Source of the DNA: Ophelia neglecta
Lineage: Eukaryota
Direction of reading: 5' to 3'
DNA: 64,000 nt
NCBI GenBank assembly: GCA_965285935.1
Contig: OZ260662.1
Location: 58,900,001-58,964,000, forward strand
The notes beneath the pieces are model-generated. The model was not told the origin of the DNA. It did no database searches and saw nothing but the letters and a program-made list of their open reading frames with translations. Positions 22,176 through 63,385 of the stretch are shown here, one piece after another (the first letter of the stretch is position 1; every line of letters begins with the position of its first letter). The position numbers and the translations under genes are program-made.

Positions 22176-22178
22176 AAA

Positions 22179-31736: not shown

Positions 31737-33321
31737 CCCGTATTGCTGGAAAAGACAACATTGAAGCTGATATATTATCCAGAAAGTTTGATCATGAAAC
31801 AGAATGGATGTTAAACCCACAAATGTTTAGAAATGCAATCAATTTGTGCCAGTTAGAACCTAAGATTGATCTCTTTGCCTTCTAGAATCAACTGTCAATT
31901 GCCTACTTTCTTAGCTTGGAAACCTCAGCCAAATGCTTCTGCAATTGATGCTTTCTCAATTAATTGGTCATTACTTGATTTTTACGCTTTTCCGCCTTTC
32001 TCTGTCATTTCTTTGGTTATACTAAAAGTCTTACATGAGAAAGCAACAGGAATCATTGTTATTCCCTACTGGCCGACTCAGGCCTGGTTCCCATCTGTCA
32101 TACATCTGTTGTGTGATTTCCCAATTTTGCTTTCTAGGAGCCGGTCATTATTGACCCTGCCGAGCAATCCACACAAAACACATCTATTGCACAAGAAGCT
32201 AGATCTACTGATGTGCTACATATCGAGGCAAACATCCAAAGTCAGGGACTTTCAACAACGGCTAGAAATCTCATTCAGGCATCATGGAGACCGTCCACGA
32301 AAAAACAATACATCCCCTACTTACGGCGGTGGGAAATTTATTGCCATCAGAGGAAAATCAATAAAATTAAAAGTTCTGTGACTGATGGAATTAATTAACT
32401 TGGCTGAACTTTATAATACCGGAATTGGATAAAGTGCTATCAGCACCGCTCGTTCGGCACTATCAACAGTTCTGCCGACTGTGGACCGAATAAATTTTGG
32501 CAAAGACCCCAATGTGACAAGGCTTTTAAAAGGAGTCTTCAATAAAAGACCTTCTTTGCCAAGGTTTTCAGCAATTTTTGATGTCAACATCTTATGATTC
32601 ATTTTAAAAATATATTGCCATCAGAGGAAAATCAATAAAATTAAAAGTTCTGTGACTGATGGAATTAATTAACTTGGCTGAACTTTATAATACCGGAATT
32701 GGATAAAGTGCTATCAGCACCGCTCGTTCGGCACTATCAACAGTTCTGCCGACTGTGGACCGAATAAATTTTGGCAAAGACCCCAATGTGACAAGGCTTT
32801 TAAAAGGAGTCTTCAATAAAAGACCTTCTTTGCCAAGGTTTTCAGCAATTTTTGATGTCAACATCTTATGATTCATTTTAAAAATATACCACTTTACCTG
32901 ATCCCACTCAAGGAACTTTCTACAAAATTAGTAATGCCGCTCGCTCTATTAACTGGGCGTGTGCAGACTCTCGTGGCTATCAAAACGGACAAGCTAACTT
33001 GTAAACCTACAAAGTGTGTTATCACAATTGATTCCGTATTAAAAACATCGAAGCCAGGGCGGCACATCAAGCCTATTGAGCTTTTGGCCTTTGAGGATGA
33101 AACATTGTCCCCTGTAAAGCATTTACAGAAATATCTTGATTCAACATCTTCACTAAGGGGGAATGAGACCAAACTATTGGTGATGAGGCTATTTTCAAGT
33201 TGAATGTTGATCAAATATTGCTGAATGCAATTAACAGTGTAAAGAAGTTTAAGGCTGGCCGGCTTAAGCACTTTGTAAACAAGTGGTAATCTCTAACAAC
33301 TGATAAAGAGATCATTCAAAT

Positions 33322-37503: not shown

Positions 37504-38862
37504 CAGTGGGCTTCTAGAAGCCTGTTTCTAGAAGCCTGTGGATCAGTGTAGCCCGTATTGCTGGAAAAGACAACATTGAAGCTGATATATTATCCAGAAA
37601 GTTTGATCATGAAACAGAATGGATGTTAAACCCACAAATGTTTAGAAATGCAATCAATTTGTGCCAGTTAGAACCTAAGATTGATCTCTTTGCCTTCTAG
37701 AATCAACTGTCAATTGCCTACTTTCTTAGCTTGGAAACCTCAGCCAAATGCTTTTGCAATTGATGCTTTCTCAATTAATTGGTCATTACTTGATTTTTAC
37801 GCTTTTCCGCCTTTCTCTGTCATTTCTTTGGTTATACTAAAAGTCTTACATGAGAAAGCAACAGGAATCATTGTTATTCCCTACTGGCCGACTCAGGCCT
37901 GGTTCCCATCTGTCATACATCTGTTGTGTGATTTCCCAATTTTGCTTTCTAGGAGCCGGTCATTATTGACCCTGCCGAGCAATCCACACAAAACACATCT
38001 ATTGCAAAAGAAGCTAGATCTACTGATGTGCTACATATCGAGGCAAACATCCAAAGTCAGGGACTTTCAACAACGGCTAGAAATCTCATTCAGGCATCAT
38101 GGAGACCGTCCACGAAAAAACAATACATCCCCTACTTACGGCGGTGGGAAATTTATTGCCATCAGAGGAAAATCAATAAAATTAAAAGTTCTGTGACTGA
38201 TGGAATTAATTAACTTGGCTGAACTTTATAATACCGGAATTGGATAAAGTGCTATCAGCACCGCTCGTTCGGCACTATAAACAGTTCTGCCGACTGTGGA
38301 CCGAATAAATTTTGGCAAAGACCCCAATGTGACAAGGCTTTTAAAAGGAGTCTTCAATAAAAGACCTTCTTTGCCAAGGTTTTCAGCAATTTTTGATGTC
38401 AACATCTTATGATTCATTTTAAAAATATACCACTTTACCTGATCCCACTCAAGGAACTTTCTACAAAATTAGTAATGCCGCTCGCTCTATTAACTGGGCG
38501 TGTGCAGACTCTCGTGGCTATCAAAACGGACAAGCTAACTTGTAAACCTACAAAGTGTGTTATCACAATTGATTCCGTATTAAAAACATCGAAGCCAGGG
38601 CGGCACATCAAGCCTATTGAGCTTTTGGCCTTTGAGGATGAAACATTGTCCCCTGTAAAGCATTTACAGAAATATCTTGATTCAACATCTTCACTAAGGG
38701 GGAATGAGACCAAACTATTGGTGATGAGGCTATTTTCAAGTTGAATGTTGATCAAATATTGCTGAATGCAATTAACAGTGTAAAGAAGTTTAAGGCTGGC
38801 CGGCTTAAGCACTTTGTAAACAAGTGGTAATCTCTAACAACTGATAAAGAGATCATTCAAAT

Positions 38863-40137
38863 ATGGTCAAAGGCTACCATATTCCCTTTAATGCTTCCCC
38901 AATACAATTAAACCTGCCTAAGAAAACGGTTTTTTGTGCACGGGAAATGACTTTGATTACAAATGAAGTACAGTCACCTTTAGAAAAAGGGGTTATAGAG
39001 AAATGTAGCAGAGAACCTTGGGATTTTGTCTCTAACATTTTTACTAGGGAGAAAAAAGATGGTTCGAGTAGGATTATCTTGAATGTTAAAAAACTGAACA
39101 TGTATGTGGATCATACCCATTTCAAAATGAAGACGCTATTGACAGCAATAAGGTTAATGAAATCAGGATGTTTTATGGCATCAATTGATCTGAAAGATGC
39201 ATACTATTCTGTCCCTATTGCAGAAGAACATCAAAAGTATCTCAAATTTGAGTGGGAAGGACAATTCTTCCAATACACCGTTTTTCCAAACGGCCTAAGA
39301 AGCTGTCCTCGAGATTTTACCAAGTTGCTTAAGCCAGCTTATGCCGAATTACGCCGGCAAGCTAATCAATCTGTGGCATATATGGATGACTCATTTTTAC
39401 AAGGTGAGCAAAAGGCTGACTGCCAGTTAAACGTGCTTCACACAGCTGAGATGATCTCATCCCTCGGTTTTATTATACACCCTGAAAAATCAGTACTTGT
39501 CCCAACTCAGATAATTGAGTTCCTGGGCTTCCTGTTGGACTCAATCAACATGGTAGTAAAACTGACCCCACACAAAGCTACTGTTGTAAAACAGGCATGT
39601 GAACATCTCATGTCAAAGAATCTTCCCACAATTAGGGAAGTTTGTGTGGTTATAGGCAAATTAGTGGCTAGCTTTCCTGGAGTACTAATGGGACCACTTC
39701 ACTATAGAACAATAGAGACTGACAAAACTGCAGCTTTGAAGCTAAACAAGGGGAACTTTGATGCCACCATGACTTTATCACAAGGGGCCATTTCTGATTT
39801 GCAGTGGTGGACTCAGCATGTTGAAACTGCTTTCAAACCAATTTCTCATGGTAAACCAGATGTTGTTCTCACCACAGATGCAAGCCTTAAAGCCTGGGGT
39901 GCCTTTAATAAAACCAACTCACATTCAGCCCAAGGGGAATGGTCAATTAATGAAGCATCGAGTCATATCAATGTTCTAGAACTAAAAGCAGCTCTTTTCG
40001 AACTGAAATCTCTCAGTGCTGTCTTGACAAATAAGCACATCAGACTTATGGTTGATAACATGACTGCTGTGGCTTACATTAGAGAGATGGGTGGGTGCAA
40101 ATCCCATGATTGTGATCTTATCAGCCTAGAAATCTGA
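38863..40137 (+). CDS. DIRS RT-RNaseH ORF, unit 6
   Basis: Same motifs as unit 1. Confidence 0.8.
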   Translation: MVKGYHIPFNASPIQLNLPKKTVFCAREMTLITNEVQSPLEKGVIEKCSREPWDFVSNIFTREKKDGSSRIILNVKKLNMYVDHTHFKMKTLLTAIRLMKSGCFMASIDLKDAYYSVPIAEEHQKYLKFEWEGQFFQYTVFPNGLRSCPRDFTKLLKPAYAELRRQANQSVAYMDDSFLQGEQKADCQLNVLHTAEMISSLGFIIHPEKSVLVPTQIIEFLGFLLDSINMVVKLTPHKATVVKQACEHLMSKNLPTIREVCVVIGKLVASFPGVLMGPLHYRTIETDKTAALKLNKGNFDATMTLSQGAISDLQWWTQHVETAFKPISHGKPDVVLTTDASLKAWGAFNKTNSHSAQGEWSINEASSHINVLELKAALFELKSLSAVLTNKHIRLMVDNMTAVAYIREMGGCKSHDCDLISLEI

Positions 40138-41600
40138 CAGTGGGCTTCTAGAAGCCTGTTTCTAGAAGCCTGTGGATCAGTGTAGCCCGTATTGCTGGAA
40201 AAGACAACATTGAGGCTGATATATTATCCAGAAAGTTTGATCATGAAACAGAATGGATGTTAAACCCACAAATGTTTAGAAATGCAATCAATTTGTGCCA
40301 GTTAGAACCTAAGATTGATCTCTTTGCCTTCTAGAATCAACTGTCAATTGCCTACTTTCTTAGCTTGGAAACCTCAGCCAAATGCTTTTGCAATTGATGC
40401 TTTCTCAATTAATTGGTCATTACTTGATTTTTACGCTTTTCCGCCTTTCTCTGTCATTTCTTTGGTTATACTAAAAGTCTTACATGAGAAAGCAACAGGA
40501 ATCATTGTTATTCCCTACTGGCCGACTCAGTAAAATGAAGTAAATAGATGTCCAACGGGTGTTAAAACTTTAATAGACCGACGTTTCGGCTGATGCAGCC
40601 TTCCTCAAGGTACAAAAAATCTAAAATGACTCAGGCCTGGTTCCCATCTGTCATACATCTGTTGTGTGATTTCCCAATTTTGCTTTCTAGGAGCCGGTCA
40701 TTATTGACCCTGCCGAGCAATCCACACAAAACACATCTATTGCACAAGAAGCTAGATCTACTGATGTGCTACATATCGAGGCAAACATCCAAAGTCAGGG
40801 ACTTTCAACAACGGCTAGAAATCTCATTCAGGCATCATGGAGACCGTCCACGAAAAAACAATACATCCCCTACTTACGGCGGTGGGAAATTTATTGCCAT
40901 CAGAGGAAAATCAATAAAGTTAAAAGTTCTGTGACTGATGGAATTAATTAACTTGGCTGAACTTTATAATACCGGAATTGGATAAAGTGCTATCAGCACC
41001 GCTCGTTCGGCACTATCAACAGTTCTGCCGACTGTGGACCGAATAAATTTTGGCAAAGACCCCAATGTGACAAGGCTTTTAAAAGGAGTCTTCAATAAAA
41101 GACCTTCTTTGCCAAGGTTTTCAGCAATTTTTGATGTCAACATCTTATGATTCATTTTAAAAATATACCACTTTACCTGATCCCACTCAAGGAACTTTCT
41201 ACAAAATTAGTAATGCCGCTCGCTCTATTAACTGGGCGTGTGCAGACTCTCGTGGCTATCAAAACGGACAAGCTAACTTGTAAACCTACAAAGTGTGTTA
41301 TCACAATTGATTCCGTATTAAAAACATCGAAGCCAGGGCGGCACATCAAGCCTATTGAGCTTTTGGCCTTTGAGGATGAAACATTGTCCCCTGTAAAGCA
41401 TTTACAGAAATATCTTGATTCAACATCTTTACTAAGGGGGAATGAGACCAAACTATTGGTGATGAGGCTATTTTCAAGTTGAATGTTGATCAAATATTGC
41501 TGAATGCAATTAACAGTGTAAAGAAGTTTAAGGCTGGCCGGCTTAAGCACTTTGTAAACAAGTGGTAATCTCTAACAACTGATAAAGAGATCATTCAAAT

Positions 41601-42875
41601 ATGGTCAAAGGCTACCATATTCCCTTTAATGCTTCCCCAATACAATTAAACCTGCCTAAGAAAACGGTTTTTTGTGCACGGGAAATGACTTTGATTACAA
41701 ATGAAGTACAGTCACCTTTAGAAAAAGGGGTTATAGAGAAATGTAGCAGAGAACCTTGGGATTTTGTCTCTAACATTTTTACTAGGGAGAAAAAAGATGG
41801 TTCGAGTAGGATTATCTTGAATGTTAAAAAACTGAACATGTATGTGGATCATACCCATTTCAAAATGAAGACGCTATTGACAGCAATAAGGTTAATGAAA
41901 TCAGGATGTTTTATGGCATCAATTGATCTGAAAGATGCATACTATTCTGTCCCTATTGCAGAAGAACATCAAAAGTATCTCAAATTTGAGTGGGAAGGAC
42001 AATTCTTCCAATACACCGTTTTTCCAAACGGCCTAAGAAGCTGTCCTCGAGATTTTACCAAGTTGCTTAAGCCAGCTTATGCCGAATTACGCCGGCAAGC
42101 TAATCAATCTGTGGCATATATGGATGACTCATTTTTACAAGGTGAGCAAAAGGCTGACTGCCAGTTAAACGTGCTTCACACAGCTGAGATGATCTCATCC
42201 CTCGGTTTTATTATACACCCTGAAAAATCAGTACTTGTCCCAACTCAGATAATTGAGTTCCTGGGCTTCCTGTTGGACTCAATCAACATGGTAGTAAAAC
42301 TGACCCCACACAAAGCTACTGTTGTAAAACAGGCATGTGAACATCTCATGTCAAAGAATCTTCCCACAATTAGGGAAGTTTGTGTGGTTATAGGCAAATT
42401 AGTGGCTAGCTTTCCTGGAGTACTAATGGGACCACTTCACTATAGAACAATAGAGACTGACAAAACTGCAGCTTTGAAGCTAAACAAGGGGAACTTTGAT
42501 GCCACCATGACTTTATCACAAGGGGCCATTTCTGATTTGCAGTGGTGGACTCAGCATGTTGAAACTGCTTTCAAACCAATTTCTCATGGTAAACCAGATG
42601 TTGTTCTCACCACAGATGCAAGCCTTAAAGCCTGGGGTGCCTTTAATAAAACCAACTCACATTCAGCCCAAGGGGAATGGTCAATTAATGAAGCATCGAG
42701 TCATATCAATGTTCTAGAACTAAAAGCAGCTCTTTTCGAACTGAAATCTCTCAGTGCTGTCTTGACAAATAAGCACATCAGACTTATGGTTGATAACATG
42801 ACTGCTGTGGCTTACATTAGAGAGATGGGTGGGTGCAAATCCCATGATTGTGATCTTATCAGCCTAGAAATCTGA
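41601..42875 (+). CDS. DIRS RT-RNaseH ORF, unit 7
   Basis: Same motifs as unit 1. Confidence 0.8.
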   Translation: MVKGYHIPFNASPIQLNLPKKTVFCAREMTLITNEVQSPLEKGVIEKCSREPWDFVSNIFTREKKDGSSRIILNVKKLNMYVDHTHFKMKTLLTAIRLMKSGCFMASIDLKDAYYSVPIAEEHQKYLKFEWEGQFFQYTVFPNGLRSCPRDFTKLLKPAYAELRRQANQSVAYMDDSFLQGEQKADCQLNVLHTAEMISSLGFIIHPEKSVLVPTQIIEFLGFLLDSINMVVKLTPHKATVVKQACEHLMSKNLPTIREVCVVIGKLVASFPGVLMGPLHYRTIETDKTAALKLNKGNFDATMTLSQGAISDLQWWTQHVETAFKPISHGKPDVVLTTDASLKAWGAFNKTNSHSAQGEWSINEASSHINVLELKAALFELKSLSAVLTNKHIRLMVDNMTAVAYIREMGGCKSHDCDLISLEI

Positions 42876-44341
42876 CAGTGGGCTTCTAGAAGCCTGTTTC
42901 TAGAAGCCTGTGGATCAGTGTAGCCCGTATTGCTGGAAAAGACAACATTGAAGCTGATATATTATCCAGAAAGTTTGATCATGAAACAGAATGGATGTTA
43001 AACCCACAAATGTTTAGAAATGCAATCAATTTGTGCCAGTTAGAACCTAAGATTGATCTCTTTGCCTTCTAGAATCAACTGTCAATTGCCTACTTTCTTA
43101 GCTTGGAAACCTCAGCCAAATGCTTTTGCAATTGATGCTTTCTCAATTAATTGGTCATTACTTGATTTTTACGCTTTTCCGCCTTTCTCTGTCATTTCTT
43201 TGGTTATACTAAAAGTCTTACATGAGAAAGAAACAGGAATCATTGTTATTCCCTACTGGCCGACTCAGTAAAATGAAGTAAATAGATGTCCAACGGGTGT
43301 TAAAACTTTAATAGACCGACGTTTCGGCTGATGCAGCCTTCCTCAAGGTACAAAAAATCTAAAATGACTCAGGCCTGGTTCCCATCTGTCATACATCTGT
43401 TGTGTGATTTCCCAATTTTGCTTTCTAGGAGCCGGTCATTATTGACCCTGCCGAGCAATCCACACAAAACACATCTATTGCACAAGAAGCTAGATCTACT
43501 GATGTGCTACATATCGAGGCAAACATCCAAAGTCAGGGACTTTCAACAACGGCTAGAAATCTCATTCAGGCATCATGGAGACCGTCCACGAAAAAACAAT
43601 ACATCCCCTACTTACGGCGGTGGGAAATTTATTGCCATCAGAGGAAAATCAATAAAATTAAAAGTTCTGTGACTGATGGAATTAATTAACTTGGCTGAAC
43701 TTTATAATACCGGAATTGGATAAAGTGCTATCAGCACCGCTCGTTCGGCACTATCAACAGTTCTGCCGACTGTGGACCGAATAACTTTTGGCAAAGACCC
43801 CAATGTGACAAGGCTTTTAAAAGGAGTCTTCAATAAAAGACCTTCTTTGCCAAGGTTTTCAGCAATTTTTGATGTCAACATCTTATGATTCATTTTAAAA
43901 ATATACCACTTTACCTGATCCCACTCAAGGAACTTTCTACAAAATTAGTGATGCTGCTCGCTCTATTAACTGGCCAGCGTGTGCAGACTCTCGTGGCTAT
44001 CAAAACGGACAAGCTAACTTGTAAACCTACAAAGTGTGTTATCACAATTGATTCCGTATTAAAAACATCGAAGCCAGGGCGGCACATCAAGCCTATTGAG
44101 CTTTTGGCCTTTGAGGATGAAACATTGTCCCCTGTAAAGCATTTACAGAAATATCTTGATTCAACATCTTCACTAAGGGGGAATGAGACCAAACTATTGG
44201 TGATGAGGCTATTTTCAAGTTGAATGTTGATCAAATATTGCTGAATGCAATTGACAGTGTAAAGAAGTTTAAGGCTGGCCGGCTTAAGCACTTTGTAAAC
44301 AAGTGGTAATCTCTAACAACTGATAAAGAGATCATTCAAAT

Positions 44342-45664
44342 ATGGTCAAAGGCTACCATATTCCCTCTAATGCTTCCCCAATACAATTAAACCTGCCTAA
44401 GAAAACGGTTTTTTGTGCACGGGAAATGACTTTGATTACAAATGAAGTACAGTCACTTTTAGAAAAAGGGGTTATAGAGAAATGTAGCAGAGAACCTTGG
44501 GATTTTGTCTCTAGCATTTTTACTAGGGAGAAAAAAGATGGTTCGAGTAGGATTATCTTGAATGTTAAAAAACTGAACATGTATGTGGATCATACCCATT
44601 TCAAAATGAAGACGCTATTGACAGCAATAAGGTTAATGAAATCAGTATGTTTTATGGCATCAATTGATCTGAAAGATAAATACTATTCTGTCCCTATTGC
44701 AGAAGAACATCAAAAGAATCTCAAATTTGAGTGGGAAGGACAATTCTTCCAATACACCGTTTTTCCAAACGGCCTAAGAAGCTGTCCTCGAGATTTTACC
44801 AAGTTGCTTAAGCCAGCTTATGCCGAATTACGCCGGCAAGCGAATCAATCTGTGGCATATATGGATGACTCATTTTTACAAGGTGAGCAAAAGGCTGACT
44901 GCCAGTTAAACGTGCTTCACACAGCTGAGATGATCTCATCCCTCGGTTTTATTATACACCCTGAAAAATCAGTACTTGTCCCAACTCAGATAATTGAGTT
45001 CCTGGGCTTCCTGTTGGACTCAATCAACATGGTAGTAAAACTGACCCCACACAAAGCTACTGTTGTAAAACAGGCATGTGAACATCTCATGTCAAAGAAT
45101 CTTCCCACAATTAGGGAAGTTTGTGTGGTTATAGGCAAATTAGTGGCTAGCTTTCCTGGAGTACTAATGGGACCACTTCACTATAGAACAATAGAGACTG
45201 ACAAAACTGCAGCCTTGAAGCTAAACAAGGGGAACTTTGATGCCACCATGACTTTATCACAAGGGGCCATTTCTGATTTGCAGTGGTGGACTCAGCATGT
45301 TGAAACTGCTTTCAAACCAATTTCTCATGGTGAACCAGATGTTGTTCTCACCACAGATGCAAGCCTTAAAGCCTGGGGTGCCTTTAATAAAACCAACTCA
45401 AATTCAGCCCAAGGGGAATGGTCAATTAATGAAGCATCGAGTCATATCAATGTTCTAGAACTAAAAGCAGCTCTTTTCGAACTGAAATCTCTCAGTGCTG
45501 TCTTGACAAATAAGCACATCAGACTTATGGTTGATAACATGACTGCTGTGGCTTACATTAGAGAGATGGGTGGGTGCAAATCCCATGATTGTGATCTTAT
45601 CAGCCTAGAAATCTGGCAGTGGGCTTCTAGAAGCCTGTTTCTAGAAGCCTGTGGATCAGTGTAG
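44342..45664 (+). CDS. DIRS RT-RNaseH ORF, unit 8
   Basis: Same motifs, with DLKDKYY variant. Confidence 0.8.
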   Translation: MVKGYHIPSNASPIQLNLPKKTVFCAREMTLITNEVQSLLEKGVIEKCSREPWDFVSSIFTREKKDGSSRIILNVKKLNMYVDHTHFKMKTLLTAIRLMKSVCFMASIDLKDKYYSVPIAEEHQKNLKFEWEGQFFQYTVFPNGLRSCPRDFTKLLKPAYAELRRQANQSVAYMDDSFLQGEQKADCQLNVLHTAEMISSLGFIIHPEKSVLVPTQIIEFLGFLLDSINMVVKLTPHKATVVKQACEHLMSKNLPTIREVCVVIGKLVASFPGVLMGPLHYRTIETDKTAALKLNKGNFDATMTLSQGAISDLQWWTQHVETAFKPISHGEPDVVLTTDASLKAWGAFNKTNSNSAQGEWSINEASSHINVLELKAALFELKSLSAVLTNKHIRLMVDNMTAVAYIREMGGCKSHDCDLISLEIWQWASRSLFLEACGSV

Positions 45665-47248
45665 CCCGTATTGCTGGAAAAGACAACATTGAAGCTGATA
45701 TATTATCCAGAAAGTTTGATCATGAAACATAATGGATGTTAAACCCACAAATGTTTAGAAATGCAATCAATTTGTGCCAGTTAGAACCTAAGATTGATCT
45801 CTTTGCCTTCTAGAATCAACTGTCAATTGCCTACTTTCTTAGCTTGGAAACCTCAGCCAAATGCTTCTGCAATTGATGCTTTCTCAATTAATTGGTCATT
45901 ACTTGATTTTTACGCTTTTCCGCCTTTCTCTGTCATTTCTTTGGTTATACTAAAAGTCTTACATGAGAAAGCAACAGGAATCATTGTTATTCCCTACTGG
46001 CCGACTCAGGCCTGGTTCCCATCTGTCATACATGTGTTGTGTGATTTCCCAATTTTGCTTTCTAGGAGCCGGTCATTATTGACCCTGCCGAGCAATCCAC
46101 ACAAAACACATCTATTGCACAAGAAGCTAGATCTACTGATGTGCTACATATCGAGGCAAACATCCAAAGTCAGGGACTTTCAACAACGGCTAGAAATCTC
46201 ATTCAGGCATCATGGAGACCGTCCACGAAAAAACAATACATCCCCTACTTACGGCGGTGGGAAATTTATTGCCATCAGAGGAAAATCAATAAAATTAAAA
46301 GTTCTGTGACTGATGGAATTAATTAACTTGGCTGAACTTTATAATACCGGAATTGGATAAAGTGCTATCAGCACCGCTCGTTCGGCACTATCAACAGTTC
46401 TGCCGACTGTGGACCGAATAAATTTTGGCAAAGACCCCAATGTGACAAGGCTTTTAAAAGGAGTCTCAATAAAAGACCTTCTTTGCCAAGGTTTTCAGCA
46501 ATTTTTCATGTCAACATCTTATGATTCATTTTAAAAATATATTGCCATCAGAGGAAAATCAATAAAATTAAAAGTTCTGTGACTGATGGAATTAATTAAC
46601 TTGGCTGAACTTTATAATACCGGAATTGGATAAAGTGCTATCAGCACCGCTCGTTCGGCACTATCAACAGTTCTGCCGACTGTGGACCGAATAAATTTTG
46701 GCAAAGACCCCAATGTGACAAGGCTTTTAAAAGGAGTCTTCAATAAAAGACCTTCTTTGCCAAGGTTTTCAGCAATTTTTGATGTCAACATCTTATGATT
46801 CATTTTAAAAATATACCACTTTACCTGATCCCACTCAAGGAACTTTCTACAAAATTAGTAATGCCGCTCGCTCTATTAACTGGGCGTGTGCAGACTCTCG
46901 TGGCTATCAAAACGGACAAGCTAACTTGTAAACCTACAAAGTGTGTTATCACAATTGATTCCGTATTAAAAACATCGAAGCCAGGGCGGCACATCAAGCC
47001 TATTGAGCTTTTGGCCTTTGAGGATGAAACATTGTCCCCTGTAAAGCATTTACAGAAATATCTTGATTCAACATCTTCACTAAGGGGGAATGAGACCAAA
47101 CTATTGGTGATGAGGCTATTTTCAAGTTGAATGTTGATCAAATATTGCTGAATGCAATTAACAGTGTAAAGAAGTTTAAGGCTGGCCGGCTTAAGCACTT
47201 TGTAAACAAGTGGTAATCTCTAACAACTGATAAAGAGATCATTCAAAT

Positions 47249-48571
47249 ATGGTCAAAGACTACCATATTCCCTTTAATGCTTCCCCAATACAATTAAACC
47301 TGCCTACGAAAACGGTTTTTTGTGCACGGGAAATGACTTTGATTACAAATGAAGTACAGTCACCTTTAGAAAAAGGGGTTATAGAGAAATGTAGCAGAGA
47401 ACCTTGGGATTTTGTCTCTAACATTTTTACTAGGGAGAAAAAAGATGGTTCGAGTAGGATTATCTTGAATGTTAAAAAACTGAACATGTATGTGGATCAT
47501 ACCCATTTCAAAATGAAGACGCTATTGACAGCAATAAGGTTAATGAAATCAGGATGTTTTATGGCATCAATTGATCTGAAAGATGCATACTATTCTGTCC
47601 CTATTGCAGAAGAACATCAAAAGAATCTCAAATTTGAGTGGGAAGGACAATTCTTCCAATACACCGTTTTTCCAAACGGCCTAAGAAGCTGTCCTCGAGA
47701 TTTTACCAAGTTGCTTAAGCCAGCTTATGCCGAATTACGCCGGCAAGCGAATCAATCTGTGGCATATATGGATGACTCATTTTTACAAGGTGAGCAAAAG
47801 GCTGACTGCCAGTTAAACGTGCTTCACACAGCTGAGATGATCTCATCCCTCGGTTTTATTATACACCCTGAAAAATCAGTACTTGTCCCAACTCAGATAA
47901 TTGAGTTCCTGGGCTTCCTGTTGGACTCAATCAACATGGTAGTAAAACTGACCCCACACAAAGCTACTGTTGTAAAACAGGCATGTGAACATCTCATGTC
48001 AAAGAATCTTCCCACAATTAGGGAAGTTTGTGTGGTTATAGGCAAATTAGTGGCTAGCTTTCCTGGAGTACTAATGGGACCACTTCACTATAGAACAATA
48101 GAGACTGACAAAACTGCAGCCTTGAAGCTAAACAAGGGGAACTTTGATGCCACCATGACTTTATCACAAGGGGCCATTTCTGATTTGCAGTGGTGGACTC
48201 AGCATGTTGAAACTGCTTTCAAACCAATTTCTCATGGTGAACCAGATGTTGTTCTCACCACAGATGCAAGCCTTAAAGCCTGGGGTGCCTTTAATAAAAC
48301 CAACTCAAATTCAGCCCAAGGGGAATGGTCAATTAATGAAGCATCGAGTCATATCAATGTTCTAGAACTAAAAGCAGCTCTTTTCGAACTGAAATCTCTC
48401 AGTGCTGTCTTGACAAATAAGCACATCAGACTTATGGTTGATAACATGACTGCTGTGGCTTACATTAGAGAGATGGGTGGGTGCAAATCCCATGATTGTG
48501 ATCTTATCAGCCTAGAAATCTGGCAGTGGGCTTCTAGAAGCCTGTTTCTAGAAGCCTGTGGATCAGTGTAG
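47249..48571 (+). CDS. DIRS RT-RNaseH ORF, unit 9
   Basis: Same motifs as unit 1. Confidence 0.8.
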   Translation: MVKDYHIPFNASPIQLNLPTKTVFCAREMTLITNEVQSPLEKGVIEKCSREPWDFVSNIFTREKKDGSSRIILNVKKLNMYVDHTHFKMKTLLTAIRLMKSGCFMASIDLKDAYYSVPIAEEHQKNLKFEWEGQFFQYTVFPNGLRSCPRDFTKLLKPAYAELRRQANQSVAYMDDSFLQGEQKADCQLNVLHTAEMISSLGFIIHPEKSVLVPTQIIEFLGFLLDSINMVVKLTPHKATVVKQACEHLMSKNLPTIREVCVVIGKLVASFPGVLMGPLHYRTIETDKTAALKLNKGNFDATMTLSQGAISDLQWWTQHVETAFKPISHGEPDVVLTTDASLKAWGAFNKTNSNSAQGEWSINEASSHINVLELKAALFELKSLSAVLTNKHIRLMVDNMTAVAYIREMGGCKSHDCDLISLEIWQWASRSLFLEACGSV

Positions 48572-50155
48572 CCCGTATTGCTGGAAAAGACAACATTGAA
48601 GCTGATATATTATCCAGAAAGTTTGATCATGAAACATAATGGATGTTAAACCCACAAATGTTTAGAAATGCAATCAATTTGTGCCAGTTAGAACCTAAGA
48701 TTGATCTCTTTGCCTTCTAGAATCAACTGTCAATTGCCTACTTTCTTAGCTTGGAAACCTCAGCCAAATGCTTCTGCAATTGATGCTTTCTCAATTAATT
48801 GGTCATTACTTGATTTTTACGCTTTTCCGCCTTTCTCTGTCATTTCTTTGGTTATACTAAAAGTCTTACATGAGAAAGCAACAGGAATCATTGTTATTCC
48901 CTACTGGCCGACTCAGGCCTGGTTCCCATCTGTCATACATGTGTTGTGTGATTTCCCAATTTTGCTTTCTAGGAGCCGGTCATTATTGACCCTGCCGAGC
49001 AATCCACACAAAACACATCTATTGCACAAGAAGCTAGATCTACTGATGTGCTACATATCGAGGCAAACATCCAAAGTCAGGGACTTTCAACAACGGCTAG
49101 AAATCTCATTCAGGCATCATGGAGACCGTCCACGAAAAAACAATACATCCCCTACTTACGGCGGTGGGAAATTTATTGCCATCAGAGGAAAATCAATAAA
49201 ATTAAAAGTTCTGTGACTGATGGAATTAATTAACTTGGCTGAACTTTATAATACCGGAATTGGATAAAGTGCTATCAGCACCGCTCGTTCGGCACTATCA
49301 ACAGTTCTGCCGACTGTGGACCGAATAAATTTTGGCAAAGACCCCAATGTGACAAGGCTTTTAAAAGGAGTCTCAATAAAAGACCTTCTTTGCCAAGGTT
49401 TTCAGCAATTTTTCATGTCAACATCTTATGATTCATTTTAAAAATATATTGCCATCAGAGGAAAATCAATAAAATTAAAAGTTCTGTGACTGATGGAATT
49501 AATTAACTTGGCTGAACTTTATAATACCGGAATTGGATAAAGTGCTATCAGCACCGCTCGTTCGGCACTATCAACAGTTCTGCCGACTGTGGACCGAATA
49601 AATTTTGGCAAAGACCCCAATGTGACAAGGCTTTTAAAAGGAGTCTTCAATAAAAGACCTTCTTTGCCAAGGTTTTCAGCAATTTTTGATGTCAACATCT
49701 TATGATTCATTTTAAAAATATACCACTTTACCTGATCCCACTCAAGGAACTTTCTACAAAATTAGTAATGCCGCTCGCTCTATTAACTGGGCGTGTGCAG
49801 ACTCTCGTGGCTATCAAAACGGACAAGCTAACTTGTAAACCTACAAAGTGTGTTATCACAATTGATTCCGTATTAAAAACATCGAAGCCAGGGCGGCACA
49901 TCAAGCCTATTGAGCTTTTGGCCTTTGAGGATGAAACATTGTCCCCTGTAAAGCATTTACAGAAATATCTTGATTCAACATCTTCACTAAGGGGGAATGA
50001 GACCAAACTATTGGTGATGAGGCTATTTTCAAGTTGAATGTTGATCAAATATTGCTGAATGCAATTAACAGTGTAAAGAAGTTTAAGGCTGGCCGGCTTA
50101 AGCACTTTGTAAACAAGTGGTAATCTCTGACAACTGATAAAGAGATCATTCAAAT

Positions 50156-51479
50156 ATGGTCAAAGGCTACCATATTCCCTTTAATGCTTCCCCAATACAA
50201 TTAAACCTGCCTACGAAAACGGTTTTTTGTGCACGGGAAATGACTTTGATTACAAATGAAGTACAGTCACCTTTAGAAAAAGGGGTTATAGAGAAATGTA
50301 GCAGAGAACCTTGGGATTTTGTCTCTAACATTTTTACTAGGGAGAAAAAAGATGGTTCGAGTAGGATTATCTTGAATGTTAAAAAACTGAACATGTATGT
50401 GGATCATACCCATTTCAAAATGAAGACGCTATTGACAGCAATAAGGTTAATGAAATCAGGATGTTTTATGGCATCAATTGATCTGAAAGATGCATACTAT
50501 TCTGTCCCTATTGCAGAAGAACATCAAAAGTATCTCAAATTTGAGTGGGAAGGACAATTCTTCCAATACACCGTTTTTCCAAACGGCCTAAGAAGCTGTC
50601 CTCGAGATTTTACCAAGTTGCTTCAGCCAGCTTATGCCGAATTACGCCGGCAAGCTAATCAATCTGTGGCATATATGGATGACTCATTTTTACAAGGTGA
50701 GCAAAAGGCTGACTGCCAGTTAAACGTGCTTCACACAGCTGAGATGATCTCATCCCTCGGTTTTATTATACACCCTGAAAAATCAGTACTTGTCCCAACT
50801 CAGATAATTGAGTTCCTGGGCTTCCTGTTGGACTCAATCAACATGGTAGTAAAACTGACCCCACACAAAGCTACTGTTGTAAAACAGGCATGTGAACATC
50901 TCATGTCAAAGAATCTTCCCACAATTAGGGAAGTTTGTGTGGTTATAGGCAAATTAGTGGCTAGCTTTCCTGGAGTACTAATGGGACCACTTCACTATAG
51001 AACAATAGAGACTGACAAAACTGCACCTTTGAAGCTAAACAAGGGGAACTTTGATGCCACCATGACTTTATCACAAGGGGCCATTTCTGATTTGCAGTGG
51101 TGGACTCAGCATGTTGAAACTGCTTTCAAACCAATTTCTCATGGTGAACCAGATGTTGTTCTCACCACAGATGCAAGCCTTAAAGCCTGGGAGTGCCTTT
51201 AATAAAACCAACTCAAATTCAGCCCAAGGGGAATGGTCAATTAATGAAGCATCGAGTCATATCAATGTTCTAGAACTAAAAGCAGCTCTTTTCGAACTGA
51301 AATGTCTCAGTGCTGTCTTGACAAATAAGCACATCAGACTTATGGTTGATAACATGACTGCTGTGGCTTACATTAGAGAGATGGGTGGGTGCAAATCCCA
51401 TGATTGTGATCTTATCAGCCTAGAAATCTGGCAGTGGGCTTCTAGAATCCTGTTTCTAGAAGCCTGTGGATCAGTGTAG
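50156..51479 (+). pseudogene. DIRS RT-RNaseH, unit 10 (frameshift near 51192)
   Basis: Split ORFs 50156-51202 and 51111-51479. Confidence 0.8.
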
Positions 51480-52793
51480 CCCGTATTGCTGGAAAATACA
51501 ACATTGAAGCTGATATATTATCCAGAAAGTTTGATCATGAAACAGAATGGATGTTAAACCCACAAATGTTTAGAAATGCAATCAATTTGTGCCAGTTAGA
51601 ACCTAAGATTGATCTCTTTGCCTTCTAGAATCAACTGTCAATTGCCTACTTTCTTAGCTTGGAAACCTCAGCCAAATGCTTCTGCAATTGATGCTTTCTC
51701 AATTAATTGGTCATTACTTGATTTTTACGCTTTTCCGCCTTTCTCTGTCATTTCTTTGGTTATACTAAAAGTCTTACATGAGAAAGCAACAGGAATCATT
51801 GTTATTCCCTACTGGCCGACTCAGGCCTGGTTCCCATCTGTCATACATCTGTTGTGTGATTTCCCAATTTTGCTTTCTAGGAGCCGGTCATTATTGACCC
51901 TGCCGAGCAATCCACACAAAACACATCTATTGCACAAGAAGCTAGATCTACTGATGTGCTACATATCGAGGCAAACATCCAAAGTCAGGGACTTTCAACA
52001 ACGGCTAGAAATCTCATTCAGGCATCATGGAGACCGTCCACGAAAAAACAATACATCCCCTACTTACGGCGGTGGGAAATTTATTGCCATCAGAGGAAAA
52101 TCAATAAAATTAAAAGTTCTGTGACTGATGGAATTAATTAACTTGGCTGAACTTTATAATACCGGAATTGGATAAAGTGCTATCAGCACCGCTCGTTCGG
52201 CACTATCAACAGTTCTGCCGACTGTGGACCGAATAACTTTTGGCAAAGACCCCAATGTGACAAGGCTTTTAAAAGGAGTCTTCAATAAAAGACCTTCTTT
52301 GCCAAGGTTTTCAGCAATTTTTGATGTCAACATCTTATGATTCATTTTAAAAATATACCACTTTACCTGATCCCACTCAAGGAACTTTCTACAAAATTAG
52401 TGATGCTGCTCGCTCTATTAACTGGCCAGCGTGTGCAGACTCTCGTGGCTATCAAAACGGACAAGCTAACTTGTAAATCTACAAAGTGTGTTATCACAAT
52501 TGATTCCGTATTAAAAACATCGAAGCCAGGGCGGCACATCAAGCCTATTGAGCTTTTGGCCTTTGAGGATGAAACATTGTCCCCTGTAAAGCATTTACAG
52601 AAATATCTTGATTCAACATCTTCACTAAGGGGGAATGAGACCAAACTATTGGTGATGAGGCTATTTTCAAGTTGAATGTTGATCAAATATTGCTGAATGC
52701 AATTAACAGTGTAAAGAAGTTTAAGGCTGGCCGGCTTAAGCACTTTGTAAACAAGTGGTAATCTCTAACAACTGATAAAGAGATCATTCAAAT

Positions 52794-54116
52794 ATGGTCA
52801 AAGGCTACCATATTCCCTTTAATGCTTCCCCAATACAATTAAACCTGCCTAAGAAAAAGGTTTTTTGTGCACGGGAAATGACTTTGATTACAAATGAAGT
52901 ACAGTCACCTTTAGAAAAAGGGGTTATAGAGAAATGTAGCAGAGAACCTTGGGATTTTGTCTCTAACATTTCTACTAGGGAGAAAAAAGATGGTTCGAGT
53001 AGGATTATCTTGAATGTTAAAAAACTGAACATGTATGTGGATCATACCCATTTCAAAATGAAGACGCTATTGACAGCAATAAGGTTAATGAAATCAGGAT
53101 GTTTTATGGCATCAATTGATCTGAAAGATGCATACTATTCTGTCCCTATTGCAGAAGAACATCAAAAGTATCTCAAATTTGAGTGGGAAGGACAATTCTT
53201 CCAATACACCGTTTTTCCAAACGGCCTAAGAAGCTGTCCTCGAGATTTTACCAAGTTGCTTAAGCCAGCTTATGCCGAATTACGCCGGCTAGCGAATCAA
53301 TCTGTGGCATATATGGATGACTCATTTTTACAAGGTGAGCAAAAGGCTGACTGCCAGTTAAACGTGCTTCACACAGCTGAAATGATCTCATCCCTCGGTT
53401 TTATTATACACCCTGAAAAATCAGTACTTGTCCCAACTCAGATAATTGAGTTCCTGGGCTTCCTGTTGGACTCAATCAACATGGTAGTAAAACTGACCCC
53501 ACACAAAGCTACTGTTGTAAAACAGGCATGTGAACATCTCATGTCAAAGAATCTTCCCACAATTAGGGAAGTTTGTGTGGTTATAGGCAAATTAGTGGCT
53601 AGCTTTCCTGGAGTACTAATGGGACCACTTCACTATAGAACAATAGAGACTGACAAAACTGCACCTTTGAAGCTAAACAAGGGGAACTTTGATGCCACCA
53701 TGACTTTATCACAAGGGGCCATTTCTGATTTGCAGTGGTGGACTCAGCATGTTGAAACTGCTTTCAAACCAATTTCTCATGGTGAACCAGATGTTGTTCT
53801 CACCACAGATGCAAGCCTTAAAGCCTGGGGTGCCTTTAATAAAACCAACTCACATTCAGCCCAAGGGGAATGGTCAATTAATGAAGCATCGAGTCATATC
53901 AATGTTCTAGAACTAAAAGCAGCTCTTTTCGAACTGAAATCTCTCAGTGCTGTCTTGACAAATAAGCACATCAGACTTATGGTTGATAACATGACTGCTG
54001 TGGCTTACATTAGAGAGATGGGTGGGTGCAAATCCCATGATTGTGATCTTATCAGCCTAGAAATCTGGCAGTGGGCTTCTAGAAGCCTGTTTCTAGAAGC
54101 CTGTGGATCAGTGTAG
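52794..54116 (+). CDS. DIRS RT-RNaseH ORF, unit 11
   Basis: Same motifs as unit 1. Confidence 0.8.
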   Translation: MVKGYHIPFNASPIQLNLPKKKVFCAREMTLITNEVQSPLEKGVIEKCSREPWDFVSNISTREKKDGSSRIILNVKKLNMYVDHTHFKMKTLLTAIRLMKSGCFMASIDLKDAYYSVPIAEEHQKYLKFEWEGQFFQYTVFPNGLRSCPRDFTKLLKPAYAELRRLANQSVAYMDDSFLQGEQKADCQLNVLHTAEMISSLGFIIHPEKSVLVPTQIIEFLGFLLDSINMVVKLTPHKATVVKQACEHLMSKNLPTIREVCVVIGKLVASFPGVLMGPLHYRTIETDKTAPLKLNKGNFDATMTLSQGAISDLQWWTQHVETAFKPISHGEPDVVLTTDASLKAWGAFNKTNSHSAQGEWSINEASSHINVLELKAALFELKSLSAVLTNKHIRLMVDNMTAVAYIREMGGCKSHDCDLISLEIWQWASRSLFLEACGSV

Positions 54117-55415
54117 CCTGTATTGCTGGAAAAGACAACATTGAAGCTGATATATTATCCAGAAAGTTTGATCATGAAACAGAATGGATGTTAAACCCAC
54201 AAATGTTTAGAAATGCAATCAATTTGTGCCAGTTAGAACCTAAGATTGTTCTCTTTGCCTTCTAGAATCAACTGTCAATTGCCTACTTTCTTAGCTTGGA
54301 AACCTCAGCCAAATGCTTTTGCAATTGATGCTTTCTCAATTAATTGGTCATTACTTGATTTTTACGCTTTTCCGCCTTTCTCTGTCATTTCTTTGGTTAT
54401 ACTAAAAGTCTTACATGAGAAAGCAACAGGAATCATTGTTATTCCCTACTGGCCGACTCAGGCCTGGTTCCCATCTGTCATACATCTGTTGTGTGATTTC
54501 CCAATTTTGCTTTCTAGGAGCCGGTCATTATTGACCCTGCCGAGCAATCCACACAAAACACATCTATTGCACAAGAAGCTAGATCTACTGATGTGCTACA
54601 TATCGAGGCAAACATCCAAAGTCAGGGACTTTCAACAACGGCTAGAAATCTCATTCAGGCATCATGGAGACCGTCCACGAAAAAACAATACATCCCCTAC
54701 TTACGGCGGTGGGAAATTTATTGCCATCAGAGGAAAATCAATAAAATTAAAAGTTCTGTGACTGATGGAATTAATTAACTTGGCTGAACTTTATAATACC
54801 GGAATTGGATAAAGTGCTATCAGCACCGCTCGTTCGGCACTATCAACAGTTCTGCCGACTGTGGACCGAATAACTTTTGGCAAAGACCCCAATGTGACAA
54901 GGCTTTTAAAAGGAGTCTTCAATAAAAGACCTTCTTTGCCAAGGTTTTCAGCAATTTTTGATGTCAACATCTTATGATTCATTTTAAAAATATACCACTT
55001 TACCTGATCCCACTCAAGGAACTTTCTACAAAATTAGTGATGCTGCTCGCTCTATTAACTGGCCAGCGTGTGCAGACTCTCGTGGCTATCAAAACGGACA
55101 AGCTAACTTGTAAACCTACAAAGTGTGTTATCACAATTGATTCCGTATTAAAAACATCGAAGCCAGGGCGGCACATCAAGCCTATTGAGCTTTTGGCCTT
55201 TGAGGATGAAACATTGTCCCCTGTAAAGCATTTACAGAAACATCTTCACTAATGGGGAATGAGACCAAACTATTGGTGATGAGGCTATTTTCAAGTTGAA
55301 TGTTGATCAAATATTGCTGAATGCAATTGACAGTGTAAAGAAGTTTAAGGCTGGCCGGCTTAAGCACTTTGTAAACAAGTGGTAATCTCTAACAACTGAT
55401 AAAGAGATCATTCAA

Positions 55416-56714
55416 ATGGTCAAAGGCTACCATATTCCCTTTAATGCTTCCCCAATACAATTAAACCTGCCTAAGAAAACGGTTTTTTGTGCACGGGAAA
55501 TGACTTTGATTACAAATGAAGTACAGTCACTTTAGAAAAAGGGGTTATAGAGAAATGTAGAAGAGAACCTTGGGATTTTGTCTCTAACATTTTTACTAGG
55601 GAGAAAAAAGATGTTTCGAGTAGGATTATCTTGAATGTTAAAAAACTGAACATGTATGTGGATCATACCCATTTCAAAATGAAGACGCTATTGACAGCAA
55701 TAAGGTTAATGCAATCAGGATGTTTTATGGCATCAATTGATCTGAAAGATGCATACTATTCTGTCCCTATTGCAGAAGAACATCAAAAGTATCTCAAATT
55801 TGAGTGGGAAGGACAATTCTTCCAATACACCGTTTTTCCAAACGGCCTAAGAAGCTGTCCTCGAGATTTTACCAAGTTGCTTAAAGCCAGCTTATGCCGA
55901 ATTACGCCGGCAAGCGAATCAATCTGTGGCATATATGGATGACTCATTTTTACAAGGTGAGCAAAAGGCTGACTGCCAGTTAAACGTGCTTCACACAGCT
56001 GAGATGATCTCATCCCTCGGTTTTATTATACACCCTGAAAAATCAGTACTTGTCCCAACTCAGATAATTGAGTTCCTGGGCTTCCTGTTGGACTCAATCA
56101 ACATGGTTGTAAAACTGACCCCACACAAAGCTACTGTTGTAAAACAGGCATGTGAACATCTCATGTCAAAGAATCTTCCCACAATTAGGGAAGTTTGTGT
56201 GGTTATAGGCAAATTAGTGGCTAGCTTTCCTGGAGTACTAATGGGACCACTTCACTATAGAACAATAGAGACTGACAAAACTGCAGCTTTGAAGCTAAAC
56301 AAGGGGAACTTTGATGCTACCATGACTTTATCACAAGGGGCCATTTCTGATTTGCAGTGGTGGACTCAGCATGTTGAAACTGCTTTCAAACCAATTTCTC
56401 ATGGTGAACCAGATGTTGTTCTCACCACAGATGCAAGCCTTAAAGCCTGGGGTGCCTTTAATAAAACCAACTCACATTCAGCCCAAGGGGAATGGTCAAT
56501 TAATGAAGCATCGAGTCATATCAATGTTCTAGAACTAAAAGCAGCTCTTTTCGAACTGAAATCTCTCAGTGCTGTCATGACAAATAAGCACATCAGACTT
56601 ATGGTTGATAACATTACTGCTGTGGCTTACATTAGAGAGATGGGTGGGTGCAAATCCCATGATTGTGATCTTATCAGCCTAGAAATTCTTTTAGAAGCCT
56701 GTGGATCAGTGTAG
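55416..56714 (+). pseudogene. DIRS RT-RNaseH, unit 12 (most diverged, several frameshifts)
   Basis: Split ORFs 55631-55942 and 55926-56714. Confidence 0.8.
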
Positions 56715-57184
56715 CCCGTATTGCTGGAAAAGACAACATTGAAGCTGATATATTATCCAGAAAGTTTGATCATGAAACAGAATGGATGTTAAACCCACAA
56801 ATGTTTAGAAATGCAATCAATTTGTGCCAGTTAGAACCTAAGATTGATCTCTTTGCCTTCTAGAATCAACTGTCAATTGCCTACTTTCTTAGCTTGGAAA
56901 CCTCAGCCAAATGCTTTTGCAATTGATGCTTTCTCTATTAATTGGTCATTACTTGATTTTTACGCTTTTCCGCCTTTCTCTGTCATTTCTTTGGTTATAC
57001 TAAAAGTCTTACATGAGAAAGCAACAGGAATCATTGTTATTCCCTACTGGCCGACTCAGGCCTGGTTCCCATCTGTCATACATCTGTTGTGTGATTTCCC
57101 AATTTTGCTTTCTAGGAGCCGGTCATTATTGACCCTGCCGAGCAATCCACACAAAACACATCTATTGCACAAGAAGCTAGATCT

Positions 57185-58128
57185 CACGAGGCAAACATCC
57201 AAAGTCAGGGACTTTCAACAACGGCTAGAATTCTTATTCAGGCATCATGGAGACCGTCCACGAAAAAAACAATACATCCCCTACTTACGGCGGTGGGAAA
57301 TTTATAGCCATCAGAGGAAAATCAATAAAATTAAAAGTTCTGTGACTGATGGAATTAATTAACTTGGCTGAACTTTATAATACCGCTCGTTCGGCACTAT
57401 CAACAGTTCTGCCGACTGTGGACCGAATAACTTTTGGCAAAGACCCCAATGTGACAAGGCTTTTAAAAGGAGTCTTCAATAAAAGACCTTCTTTGCCAAG
57501 GTTTTCAACAATTTTTGATGTCAACATCTTATGATTCATTCTAAAAATATACCACTTTGCCTGATCCCACTCAAGGAACTTTCTACAAAATTAGTGATGC
57601 TGCTCGCTCTATTAACTGGCCAGCGTGTGCAGACTCTCGTGGCTATCAAAACGGACAAGCTAACTTGTAAACCTACAAAGTGTGTTATCACAATTGATTC
57701 CGTATTAAAAACATCGAAGCCAGGGCGGCACATCAAGCCTATTGAGCTTTTGGCCTTTGAGGATGAAACATTGTCCCCTGTAAAGCATTTACAGAAATAT
57801 CTTGATTCAACATCTTCACTAAGGGGGAATGAGACCCAACTATTTATAAGTCACTGTAAGCCACATTTGCCAGTTAAAATTGACACTATCCGCAGATGGA
57901 TTGTTTCTATCATGGCTGAAGCCGGAATAGACACTAATGTGTATTCAGCCCATAGCAGCCGAGCTGCTAGCACGTCTAAAGCAGCAAAACATGGGGTTGC
58001 CAGTTGACTCAATCCTGTCCTGTGTAGGCTGGAGTAAAGCAACAACTTTTGCAAAGTTTTATCATAAAGACATAACTGTCAGTCCTGAAAATACACTAAG
58101 CTCCCATATTTTAAATGGGTGTTATTGA
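57185..58128 (+). pseudogene. DIRS tyrosine recombinase; the only copy with the catalytic C-terminus (frameshifted)
   Basis: LALLTGQRVQ (R), KTSKPG (K), AHSSRAAS (HxxR), GWSKATTFAKFYHK (W, Y). Confidence 0.9.
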
Positions 58129-58340
58129 ATGTCGATTGCTTTTTGGATATCATTTTTTCCTTCATATAAGAGGTGTATTACACTTAGTTTACATGATAAA
58201 CAGATTGCTTATTGATAGTTGATATATACAAGCTCTTTACCCTTATTTAAGTTTGTGTTGTTGTTCTTATCAAATAACGTTAAATTTTTGGCATTGAATG
58301 CTCTGGTACACCTCATGCTAACCTTAGCTTTCAAATCTTT

Positions 58341-58470
58341 GTGTAATTACTAGAGTGACGTATACTGGGGAGGTGGGATAGAATTACAAAATTAAACGAG
58401 ACTTACCTGTAAGTCGAAGTTTGATTGGGATTCTATCGAATCTCCTCAGTCAGGAACGAGTAATCACACG
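58341..58470 (+). repeat. DIRS internal complementary region (ICR)
   Basis: 5' half is complementary to the left end and 3' half to the right extension 58582-58670; the halves overlap at AATT 58382-58385. Confidence 0.92.
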
Positions 58471-58554
58471 CCCTCCCTGTGAGTTCCCCTACCCAGGTAG
58501 ATTACTTGTTCCTGACCATAAAATTTTAAGGTTAACATTCGGTCCTTTTCAATC

Positions 58555-58670
58555 ATGATGATGCTCAACTGCTGTGATCTTCGTGTGATTATTCGTTCCT
58601 GACTGAGGAGATTCGTTAGAATCCCAATCAAACTTCGACTTACAGGTAAGTCTCGTATAATTTTGTAATT
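58555..58670 (+). repeat. DIRS right ITR and right extension
   Basis: ATGATGATGCTCAACTGCTGTGATCTTCGTGTGATTA is the reverse complement of 14440-14476 with 1 mismatch. Confidence 0.92.
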
Positions 58671-62667: not shown

Positions 62668-63385
62668 ATTAGATGCATTACATGTGGCAAACTTTATATT
62701 GGAGAAACCAAGCGCCGCCTTTCAGATAGATTTCGAGAACATCTCAGGGACATTAGAAAGTCGATAAGAGCCTTATCGGTCGTCCAACATTTCACCAGCA
62801 CAGGACATAACTGTGCTTAAACAATGTGCTAATGATATTGACAGAAAAGCCCTCGAAATGAGGCTAATCCATAAACCTTGACCCTCATGGTATGAATTTA
62901 GACTTCACATACAAGGTTTGAATACCAAATTATTTGTTCTTGTGTTTAGATTACTTCGGCCGCATGTCGAGTATATGGCATGATTTTTCTATATTTCTGA
63001 TATCTGACTGTTTCCCACCGGGCCGGTGTTTTCGTTTTTGTTTTTGTTGAAAATAACACTTCTTTCTATGTTTTTATTAATTGTTTGTGTATATATTTAC
63101 CTTGGTTTCTATGGCAACCTTGTCCGTGTGCTAATTGTAACTTTTGAGGCTATATATAACGTGATTACTACATCAATGTATCCCTTGAATGTGAGTGTTT
63201 TTGTTGCCTTGATTTTCCTGTGATCCGGTTGCCACTTATGCACGTTACACCGGGTGACGCAATGTGCGTCATGTATACATTCAGAACTGGAATTGAAATA
63301 AACGCCTGAAGAAGTCCAGATGGACGAAATATCGCAAATTGGATTTTATCTGTGTCTTATTTAATTTATCCTTATATATAATTTT
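62668..63385 (+). mobile_element. Penelope family C, 5'-truncated, uninterrupted (contains the empty sites for the DIRS and the 14060 family B insert)
   Basis: IRCITCGKLYIGETKRRLSDRFREH, followed by 3'UTR and pLTR. Confidence 0.9.
63304..63335 (+). ncRNA. Minimal hammerhead ribozyme, family C
   Basis: Same motif as at 59042. Confidence 0.75.

Follow-up and report, generated by a model that had tools for sequence, protein, structure and literature searches.

Polar integration junctions of DIRS1-like retrotransposons in Ophelia neglecta point to a crossover in or beside a TT dinucleotide

Introduction

A DIRS1-like retrotransposon of Ophelia neglecta carries the same four letters, AATT, at its left end, at its right end, at the internal junction of its two ends, and in an empty copy of its target. 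Is AATT a core that element and target must share for recombination to occur, a true target-site duplication (TSD), or a coincidence of the target that was used? The locus lies in a window of 64,000 nt, which is the whole stretch of DNA analyzed (contig OZ260662.1, positions 58,900,001 to 58,964,000), and coordinates below are window positions unless another locus or contig is named.

In the published model of DIRS integration (PMC3266345, cited here and below, like the other articles, from the portions available), ICRs overlap at a 3-bp circular junction, recombination takes place with an identical genomic triplet, no TSD is formed, and ATT is the commonest end. The first-pass annotation of this locus had proposed that one AATT was contributed by a circle and the other by the target, which is this same model (PMC3266345; PMC7192593) and not a new one. 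As of the available text of PMC7192593, the specificity of the DIRS recombinase was without experimental study. A literature search, with key subscription papers outside its reach, returned no paper that maps the crossover or connects DIRS integration with single-strand exchange of the integron type. Target-site analyses may already be contained in the papers of Goodwin and Poulter from 2001/2004 and of Cappello from 1985.

Anatomy of the element

The element at 14404..58670 (plus strand) is an ordinary member of a DIRS1-like family that has decayed and grown to 44,267 bp. Young sister copies recovered by genome search are about 4.85 kb long, and the window element aligns collinearly with a 4858-bp sister copy from the first to the last base, at 89-98% identity per piece. 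Because the pieces between the two ends are collinear with this sister, both ends belong to one element. The alignment is broken by a Penelope-like insertion, a 444-bp deletion, a second insertion of 4.2 kb, and 13 tandem pol-to-YR copies. The first of the nested insertions (15356..17482) is flanked by a 13-bp target duplication (15343-15355 and 17483-17495) and owes its Penelope label to repeat matches; its ORF has no Pfam match. The second (18001..22175) appears as a gap in the sister-copy alignment, contains a fragment that looks by eye like an LTR retrotransposon, and likewise has no Pfam match.

A reverse transcriptase is found in both the window and a sister copy (RVT_1, E 1e-17, above the Pfam cut-off), and a YIDD motif is present. 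In place of an integrase there is a tyrosine recombinase (YR), matched by PF00589 (Phage_integrase) above the Pfam cut-off and carrying an HSTR motif in a sister copy; its comparison with PDB sequences gave no match to any solved recombinase. After the reverse transcriptase, the translation holds motif-like words that may mark RNase H and a methyltransferase, and only a weak Pfam match (PCIF1_WW, E 0.16) falls there. A 376-aa 5' ORF in one sister copy is a gag candidate with no Pfam match. An Rfam search over 57000-64000 gave no matches at E 0.1.

The left terminus (14404..14454, plus strand) is complementary to the 5' part of the ICR at 47 of 51 positions, and the left conserved ITR (14440..14476, plus strand) is inverted relative to 58555-58591 at 97% identity. 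The right terminus (58555..58670, plus strand) comprises the conserved ITR, the divergent ITR, and a right extension that reaches 58670, and it matches the ICR at 86 of 89 positions. The ICR itself (58335..58470, plus strand), an inverted copy of the right end, AATT, and the left end, starts slightly farther out than first annotated. It is complementary to both outer ends, which overlap at the short junction, with 0 mismatches in a young copy.

Described DIRS1-like elements (Piednoel et al. 2011, PMC3266345; Malicki et al. 2020, PMC7192593) share the ITRs, right extension, two-end ICR, gag/pol/YR layout (with gag a candidate here), ATT-type ends, lack of a TSD, and length of about 4.85 kb. By our own comparison, the terminus sizes of the window element are near those that Table 3 of PMC3266345 gives for molluscs and annelids. 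Unlike the published elements, as far as the available text describes them, those studied here do not need a target equal to the 3-bp junction and have polar junctions, and the window copy contains a 13-unit internal array.

Filled ends and an empty target

The junctions at this locus read as first annotated. The reverse complement of the ICR joins the right end to the left end as ...TTTTGT-AATT-CTATC, with the core at 58382-58385. The filled right end reads TTTTGT-AATT-ATTTGTTC (core 58667-58670), and the filled left end reads GAATACCA-AATT-CTATC, its core (14404-14407) lying 44 kb upstream and beyond the coordinates that the annotation had covered. An unoccupied paralogue (62908..62951, plus strand; core 62928-62931) reads GAATACCA-AATT-ATTTGTTC. 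What had been called a circle junction is here the ICR, an internal template; no physical circle was seen.

A 12-mer at the empty site is weak evidence by itself (2 matches vs 0.74 expected). A chance match is excluded because the flanks align over long distances: both join into the empty paralogue, at 86% over 237 nt upstream including indels and at 92% over 450 nt downstream, with no difference between filled site and paralogue in the 48 nt directly before the core. Two further empty paralogues just beyond the window also have AATT, for three of three in total. Such an empty site is a paralogous repeat copy and not an allelic pre-insertion site. The upstream flank (13940..14403, plus strand), which aligns to 62667-62927, is the 3' end of the Penelope-like repeat that served as target. 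One of its frames resembles what we take to be the end of a GIY-YIG ORF, and a weak GIY-YIG Pfam match, below the curated cut-off, lies near this flank at 12839-13384.

Sampled ends and target preference

Ends were sampled from the window family and from further DIRS families with the same right-end motif and AATT junction (TATT in one variant); the main families are less than about 70% alike and are pooled in the counts, which draw on the best-scoring candidates in one assembly and are lower bounds and samples, not a census. Duplicated flanks were merged and ICR or internal look-alikes dropped before counting. This removed 8 of 63 left rows to leave 55, with L314 then restored to give 56, and 2 of 35 right rows to leave 33. 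Six extra right ends enter the pair count and not the 33. The right end of L103, which has a 4-nt insertion, was re-registered, and L102, an inverted left end, was kept out of the pairs.

AATT is the commonest left end, yet most left ends are something else. The 56 left ends comprise 20 AATT, 13 AGTT, 7 TATT, 7 GATT, 3 CATT, 3 GGTT, and 3 others. By their last three bases, 37 are ATT and 16 are GTT, and the expectation that the family favors AATT or ATT sites therefore holds for about two thirds of them and fails for the GTT class. Among the 33 right ends there are 27 AATT, 2 TATT, and one each of AAAT, AAGT, AGTT, and AATA; AATT and TATT occur together in one additional merged right-end row. 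Base 1 departs from A in 21 of 55 left ends vs 2 of 33 right ends (p=0.0009), and G occupies base 2 in 15 of 55 vs 1 of 33 (p=0.004). Of the 33 right cores, 32 are followed directly by A or T (p=6e-6), and 27 have C or T one base farther on (p=1e-4). Taken together, the target preference is approximately N-R-T-T-W-Y. Targets also have AA six bases upstream of TT in 15 of 56 cases against an 11% background (p=0.001), a weak signal that was picked post hoc over 20 positions.

Read literally, the first-pass proposal makes AATT a 4-bp crossover core that is required in the target as well. This holds at the window locus and for three further family copies whose empty paralogues are mostly AATT, and AATT accounts for 20 of 56 left ends vs about 1% of window positions. 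It conflicts with the 36 left ends that are not AATT, with the use of empty AGTT and GATT targets, and with a joint at which only two letters, TT, are ambiguous. We therefore judge an obligatory core of this kind very unlikely: it is refuted as a strict rule and remains only as a preference.

Junction polarity and the lack of a TSD

The window locus alone is also compatible with a true 4-bp TSD from a staggered cut, as is copy L120, which has AGTT on both sides. The asymmetric copies lead us to reject this reading, which we regard as next to impossible. One young copy inserted in a repeat has AGTT on the left and AATT on the right, with AGTT in six of six empty paralogues; a second has GATT on the left and AATT on the right, with GATT in two of two. 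A TSD would place the target on both sides, and the absence of these AGTT and GATT targets from the right ends means that no duplication took place. Sixteen two-ended copies have a left end unlike the junction, and just 1 of the 16 repeats that 4-mer on the right. The earlier claims that there is no true TSD, and that element and target each supply one side, are thus supported, the first by asymmetric ends with matching empty sites and the second wherever the target was not AATT.

The division is polar. In 29 two-ended copies, bases 1-2 match the junction on both sides in 13, differ on the left only in 14, on the right only in none, and on both sides in 2, and the 14:0 ratio of left-only to right-only departures has p=1.2e-4. 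The left bases 1-2 come from the target and the right bases 1-2 from the element, and a single product class of junction is present among the sampled copies. AATT flanks the window element on both sides only by coincidence, the target having been AATT; the first two bases of the element's left junction (14404..14407, plus strand) would be target-derived, given the polarity of the sister copies.

Three copies are misfits. L120 is an old copy with AGTT at both ends, L067 is decayed and has AGTT/TATT ends with AATT empty sites, and L304 has G at junction base 2 in the ICR and left end. In L304 (590-600) the right end has A at this base, and the G shared by ICR and left end may reflect gene conversion between them. 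The left end GACT of L184 has candidate empty paralogues that are 75-80% alike and mixed, and the right end AAGT of L069 has a single-copy flank. A joint that skips the insertion on contig C9 may stem from paralogous empty repeats and is not counted as an allelic empty site.

Position of the crossover

The 14 left-only and 0 right-only departures place the crossover 3' of base 2. After TT, left ends run into the element and right ends into the flank, which places it 5' of base 5. Our own sample bounds the crossover only between these two bases, and departures at bases 3-4 show no asymmetry, with 3 among 55 left ends and 3 among 33 right ends. At a contig joint across an AGTT insertion, exactly two letters, TT, are ambiguous, and the core shared by element and target is TT at most. 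The crossover lies in or at the edge of TT, and likely at R/TT, where the slash marks the cut.

The R/TT placement draws on one case and on Table 3 of PMC3266345. The case is L071, an older right end AAAT whose closest empty paralogue (93%) is AAAT, while five others aligning at the same point differ. In Table 3, 10 of 28 elements have unequal ends. With the two rows that have 2-bp junctions omitted, the eight unequal-end elements with 3-bp junctions include seven that depart on the right only, at triplet base 2 or 3, and one that departs on the left only, at base 1. By our reading, all eight fit a cut between triplet bases 1 and 2, or N/TT (crude p=0.008); the available section on this table makes no remark on such a pattern.

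How many strands are exchanged?

We consider it probable that integration proceeds without a TSD and with one crossover inside TT or at its edge, likely at R/TT, and likely by one YR strand exchange on antisense cDNA that is followed by replication. A more specific proposal, which we hold tentatively and at somewhat less than even confidence, is that DIRS elements integrate much as integron cassettes do. The joined ends of the antisense cDNA would fold into an attC-like hairpin, only that strand would be swapped at R/TT, and replication would complete the process, with no double-stranded circle needed. From the comparisons below, we infer that an integron-like single strand exchange would be the best account of DIRS integration.

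In this scheme the ICR would restore both ends of the antisense cDNA and join them. Once joined, they would form a double-stranded site within a single strand, either as a fold-back hairpin or as the ICR paired with the junction. The recombinase would cut the antisense strand at AA/T and swap it with the bottom strand of the target, and the resulting Holliday junction would be resolved by replication. If the substrate is the hairpin, the divergent ITR would be its stem, and the right extension would supply an inner helix and loop.

The textbook route, which is the published model (PMC3266345; PMC7192593, as available), instead uses a double-stranded circle and two strand exchanges over a very short overlap, namely TT or the NTT triplet, and we view it as possible though less probable. 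Mismatches outside the short overlap would either never become heteroduplex or be repaired in one direction. This route also yields no TSD and one side per partner, an overlap of 2 bp or less would fit all 14 polar cases, and the AGTT on both sides of L120 could be heteroduplex repair. Its rule of an identical 3-bp triplet, which belongs to the integration model and is not a structural criterion for DIRS1 elements, breaks in 16 of 56 left ends, which have GTT vs the ATT junction. Overlaps of 6-8 bp are usual for tyrosine recombinases. Two staggered exchanges over such an overlap between unlike cores should give mixed junctions, and these were seen in 0 of 14 cases. Double-stranded circles went undetected in PMC7192593, where, in the text available, DIRS-1 cDNA is described as single-stranded, antisense, and mostly linear, with a circle junction that could not be amplified. 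In contigs from three public runs of one sample, no right-to-left (circle) joint was listed, nor was an RNA data set with the junction; neither result carries weight for or against a circle.

Likeness to integrons

Integrons recombine a folded bottom strand and tolerate a change of the middle base (PMC3458562; PMC5027507; PMC2811028). They cleave the strand opposite G/TT (PMC2811028) and resolve by replication (PMC3458562), and for insertion at GWT (attG), homogeneous junctions have been taken as proof of a single cleavage (10.1101/2022.09.11.507474). The available accounts of IntI x attC recombination resemble DIRS integration only in how the reaction works: a tyrosine recombinase, a short R-T-T-like target, and one homogeneous junction class. 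The 14:0 polarity agrees with a single strand exchange. Unlike integrons, DIRS elements are eukaryotic retroelements with a cDNA substrate, and the DIRS junction lacks the RYYYAAC/GTTRRRY boxes of attC, having in common only AA followed by a pyrimidine. A point against integron-like exchange concerns the first triplet base, where integrons require identity (PMC2811028, as available) but 16 of 56 left ends have G opposite the element's A.

A predicted imperfect hairpin on the ICR strand (58370..58445, plus strand) is identical in sequence to the antisense strand of the junction between the two joined ends. Like attC in the descriptions available, it would be strand-biased, with two helices and an unpaired spacer. 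The antisense junction is predicted to fold at -10.9 kcal/mol (z -3.4) vs -7.5 (z -2.0) for its complement, and in eight of eight variants the ICR strand is predicted to fold better than the complement. Across nine variants, pairing holds in 97% of cells, both partners have changed in 7 of 14 outer-stem pairs, and the inner 6-bp helix, which begins 8 nt from the inferred cut, is nearly invariant. In a shuffle test of 500, the count of pairs changed on both sides was reached by 106 and the covariation score by 0, for a structure derived from the same sequences that were used for the covariation. The known "divergent ITR" constraint would also lead one to expect covariation in the stem, which does not have to reflect a recombination hairpin. 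Moreover, a perfect duplex of ICR and junction would out-compete the hairpin, and is a rival substrate that would also favor one exchange.

Five loci from other DIRS families (L104, L109, L110, L116, and L304), whose bodies are less than about 70% alike, have a near-identical 45-nt right extension. Such similarity across families suggests that the extension may be a common recombinase binding site.

Genomic setting

The window element sits in a repeat, and clusters of that repeat contain several family copies; the family could conceivably be specific for this position in the Penelope-like sequence. We find this highly improbable: among 63 left and 35 right rows there is no second insertion at the same nucleotide, and the flanks are unrelated. 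The insertion bias is regional and not site-specific.

Among the best 40 of 52 candidates scored, the Penelope-like repeat is gathered into essentially a single cluster on each of seven large contigs (in Mb, C1:74.83-74.88, C2:58.90-58.97, C5:38.44-38.46, C7:37.52-37.58, C8:70.45-70.49, C9:59.77-59.83, and C12:13.12-13.17). About 7 of 18 loci of the window family lie inside these clusters by hand count, or 5 of 16 without the query-flank cluster. The clusters are possibly centromeric regions with regional targeting or retention. Dictyostelium DIRS-1 shares the ICR design and also clusters in restricted chromosomal regions, which are centromeres in that organism (PMC7192593, as available); unlike in Dictyostelium, the clusters here are Penelope-rich regions and not arrays of the element itself.

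Several other structures were encountered. A 94-bp near-perfect inverted repeat of the Penelope-like terminus lies at 59476-59675 and has no Rfam match. Two solo mini-elements consist of a left and a right terminus with intact junctions, one of 132 bp at L074:521-652 (TATT/AATT) and one of about 160 bp at L314:9482-9642 (AGTT/AATT), and are likely products of fold-back deletion at the ITR. The right ends of L061 (C7:109.94 Mb) and L073 (C1:20.865 Mb) have the same flank, by eye a region like an LTR-retrotransposon integrase, through either duplication or a reused site.

The window element contains a tandem array (22176..58120, plus strand) of 13 units of 2.6-2.9 kb, each spanning RT, putative RNase H and MT, and partial YR, with RVT_1 and Phage_integrase matches. 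The 12 array junctions share a 5-nt near-microhomology. Units show 0-15 differences per 1.2 kb, and 274-bp sub-repeats and higher-order groups are present. A 97-bp piece resembling the Penelope terminus occurs in some units and was amplified with them (23419-23515, 26157-26253, 40531-40627, and 43269-43365). The unit junction is found in contigs of runs X1-X3, which come from one sample and possibly from the source of the assembly, at depths of 330/117/155 vs 59/24/58 for a contig at 61.4-62.7 kb. This presence at raised depth makes it likely that the array is real, and it is likely a satellite forming from the interior of a retrotransposon.

Implications

The footprint at this locus is itself a tidy example of the published model, and what is added is the mapping of crossover and polarity. 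A polar, single-class junction, together with a mismatch tolerated inside the supposed 3-bp identity, makes the cut site, the strand, and the substrate concrete enough to be tested. An integron-like route, if true, would explain the missing circles and would give the divergent ITR and the right extension a function. It would also extend folded single-strand tyrosine recombination to animal retrotransposons.
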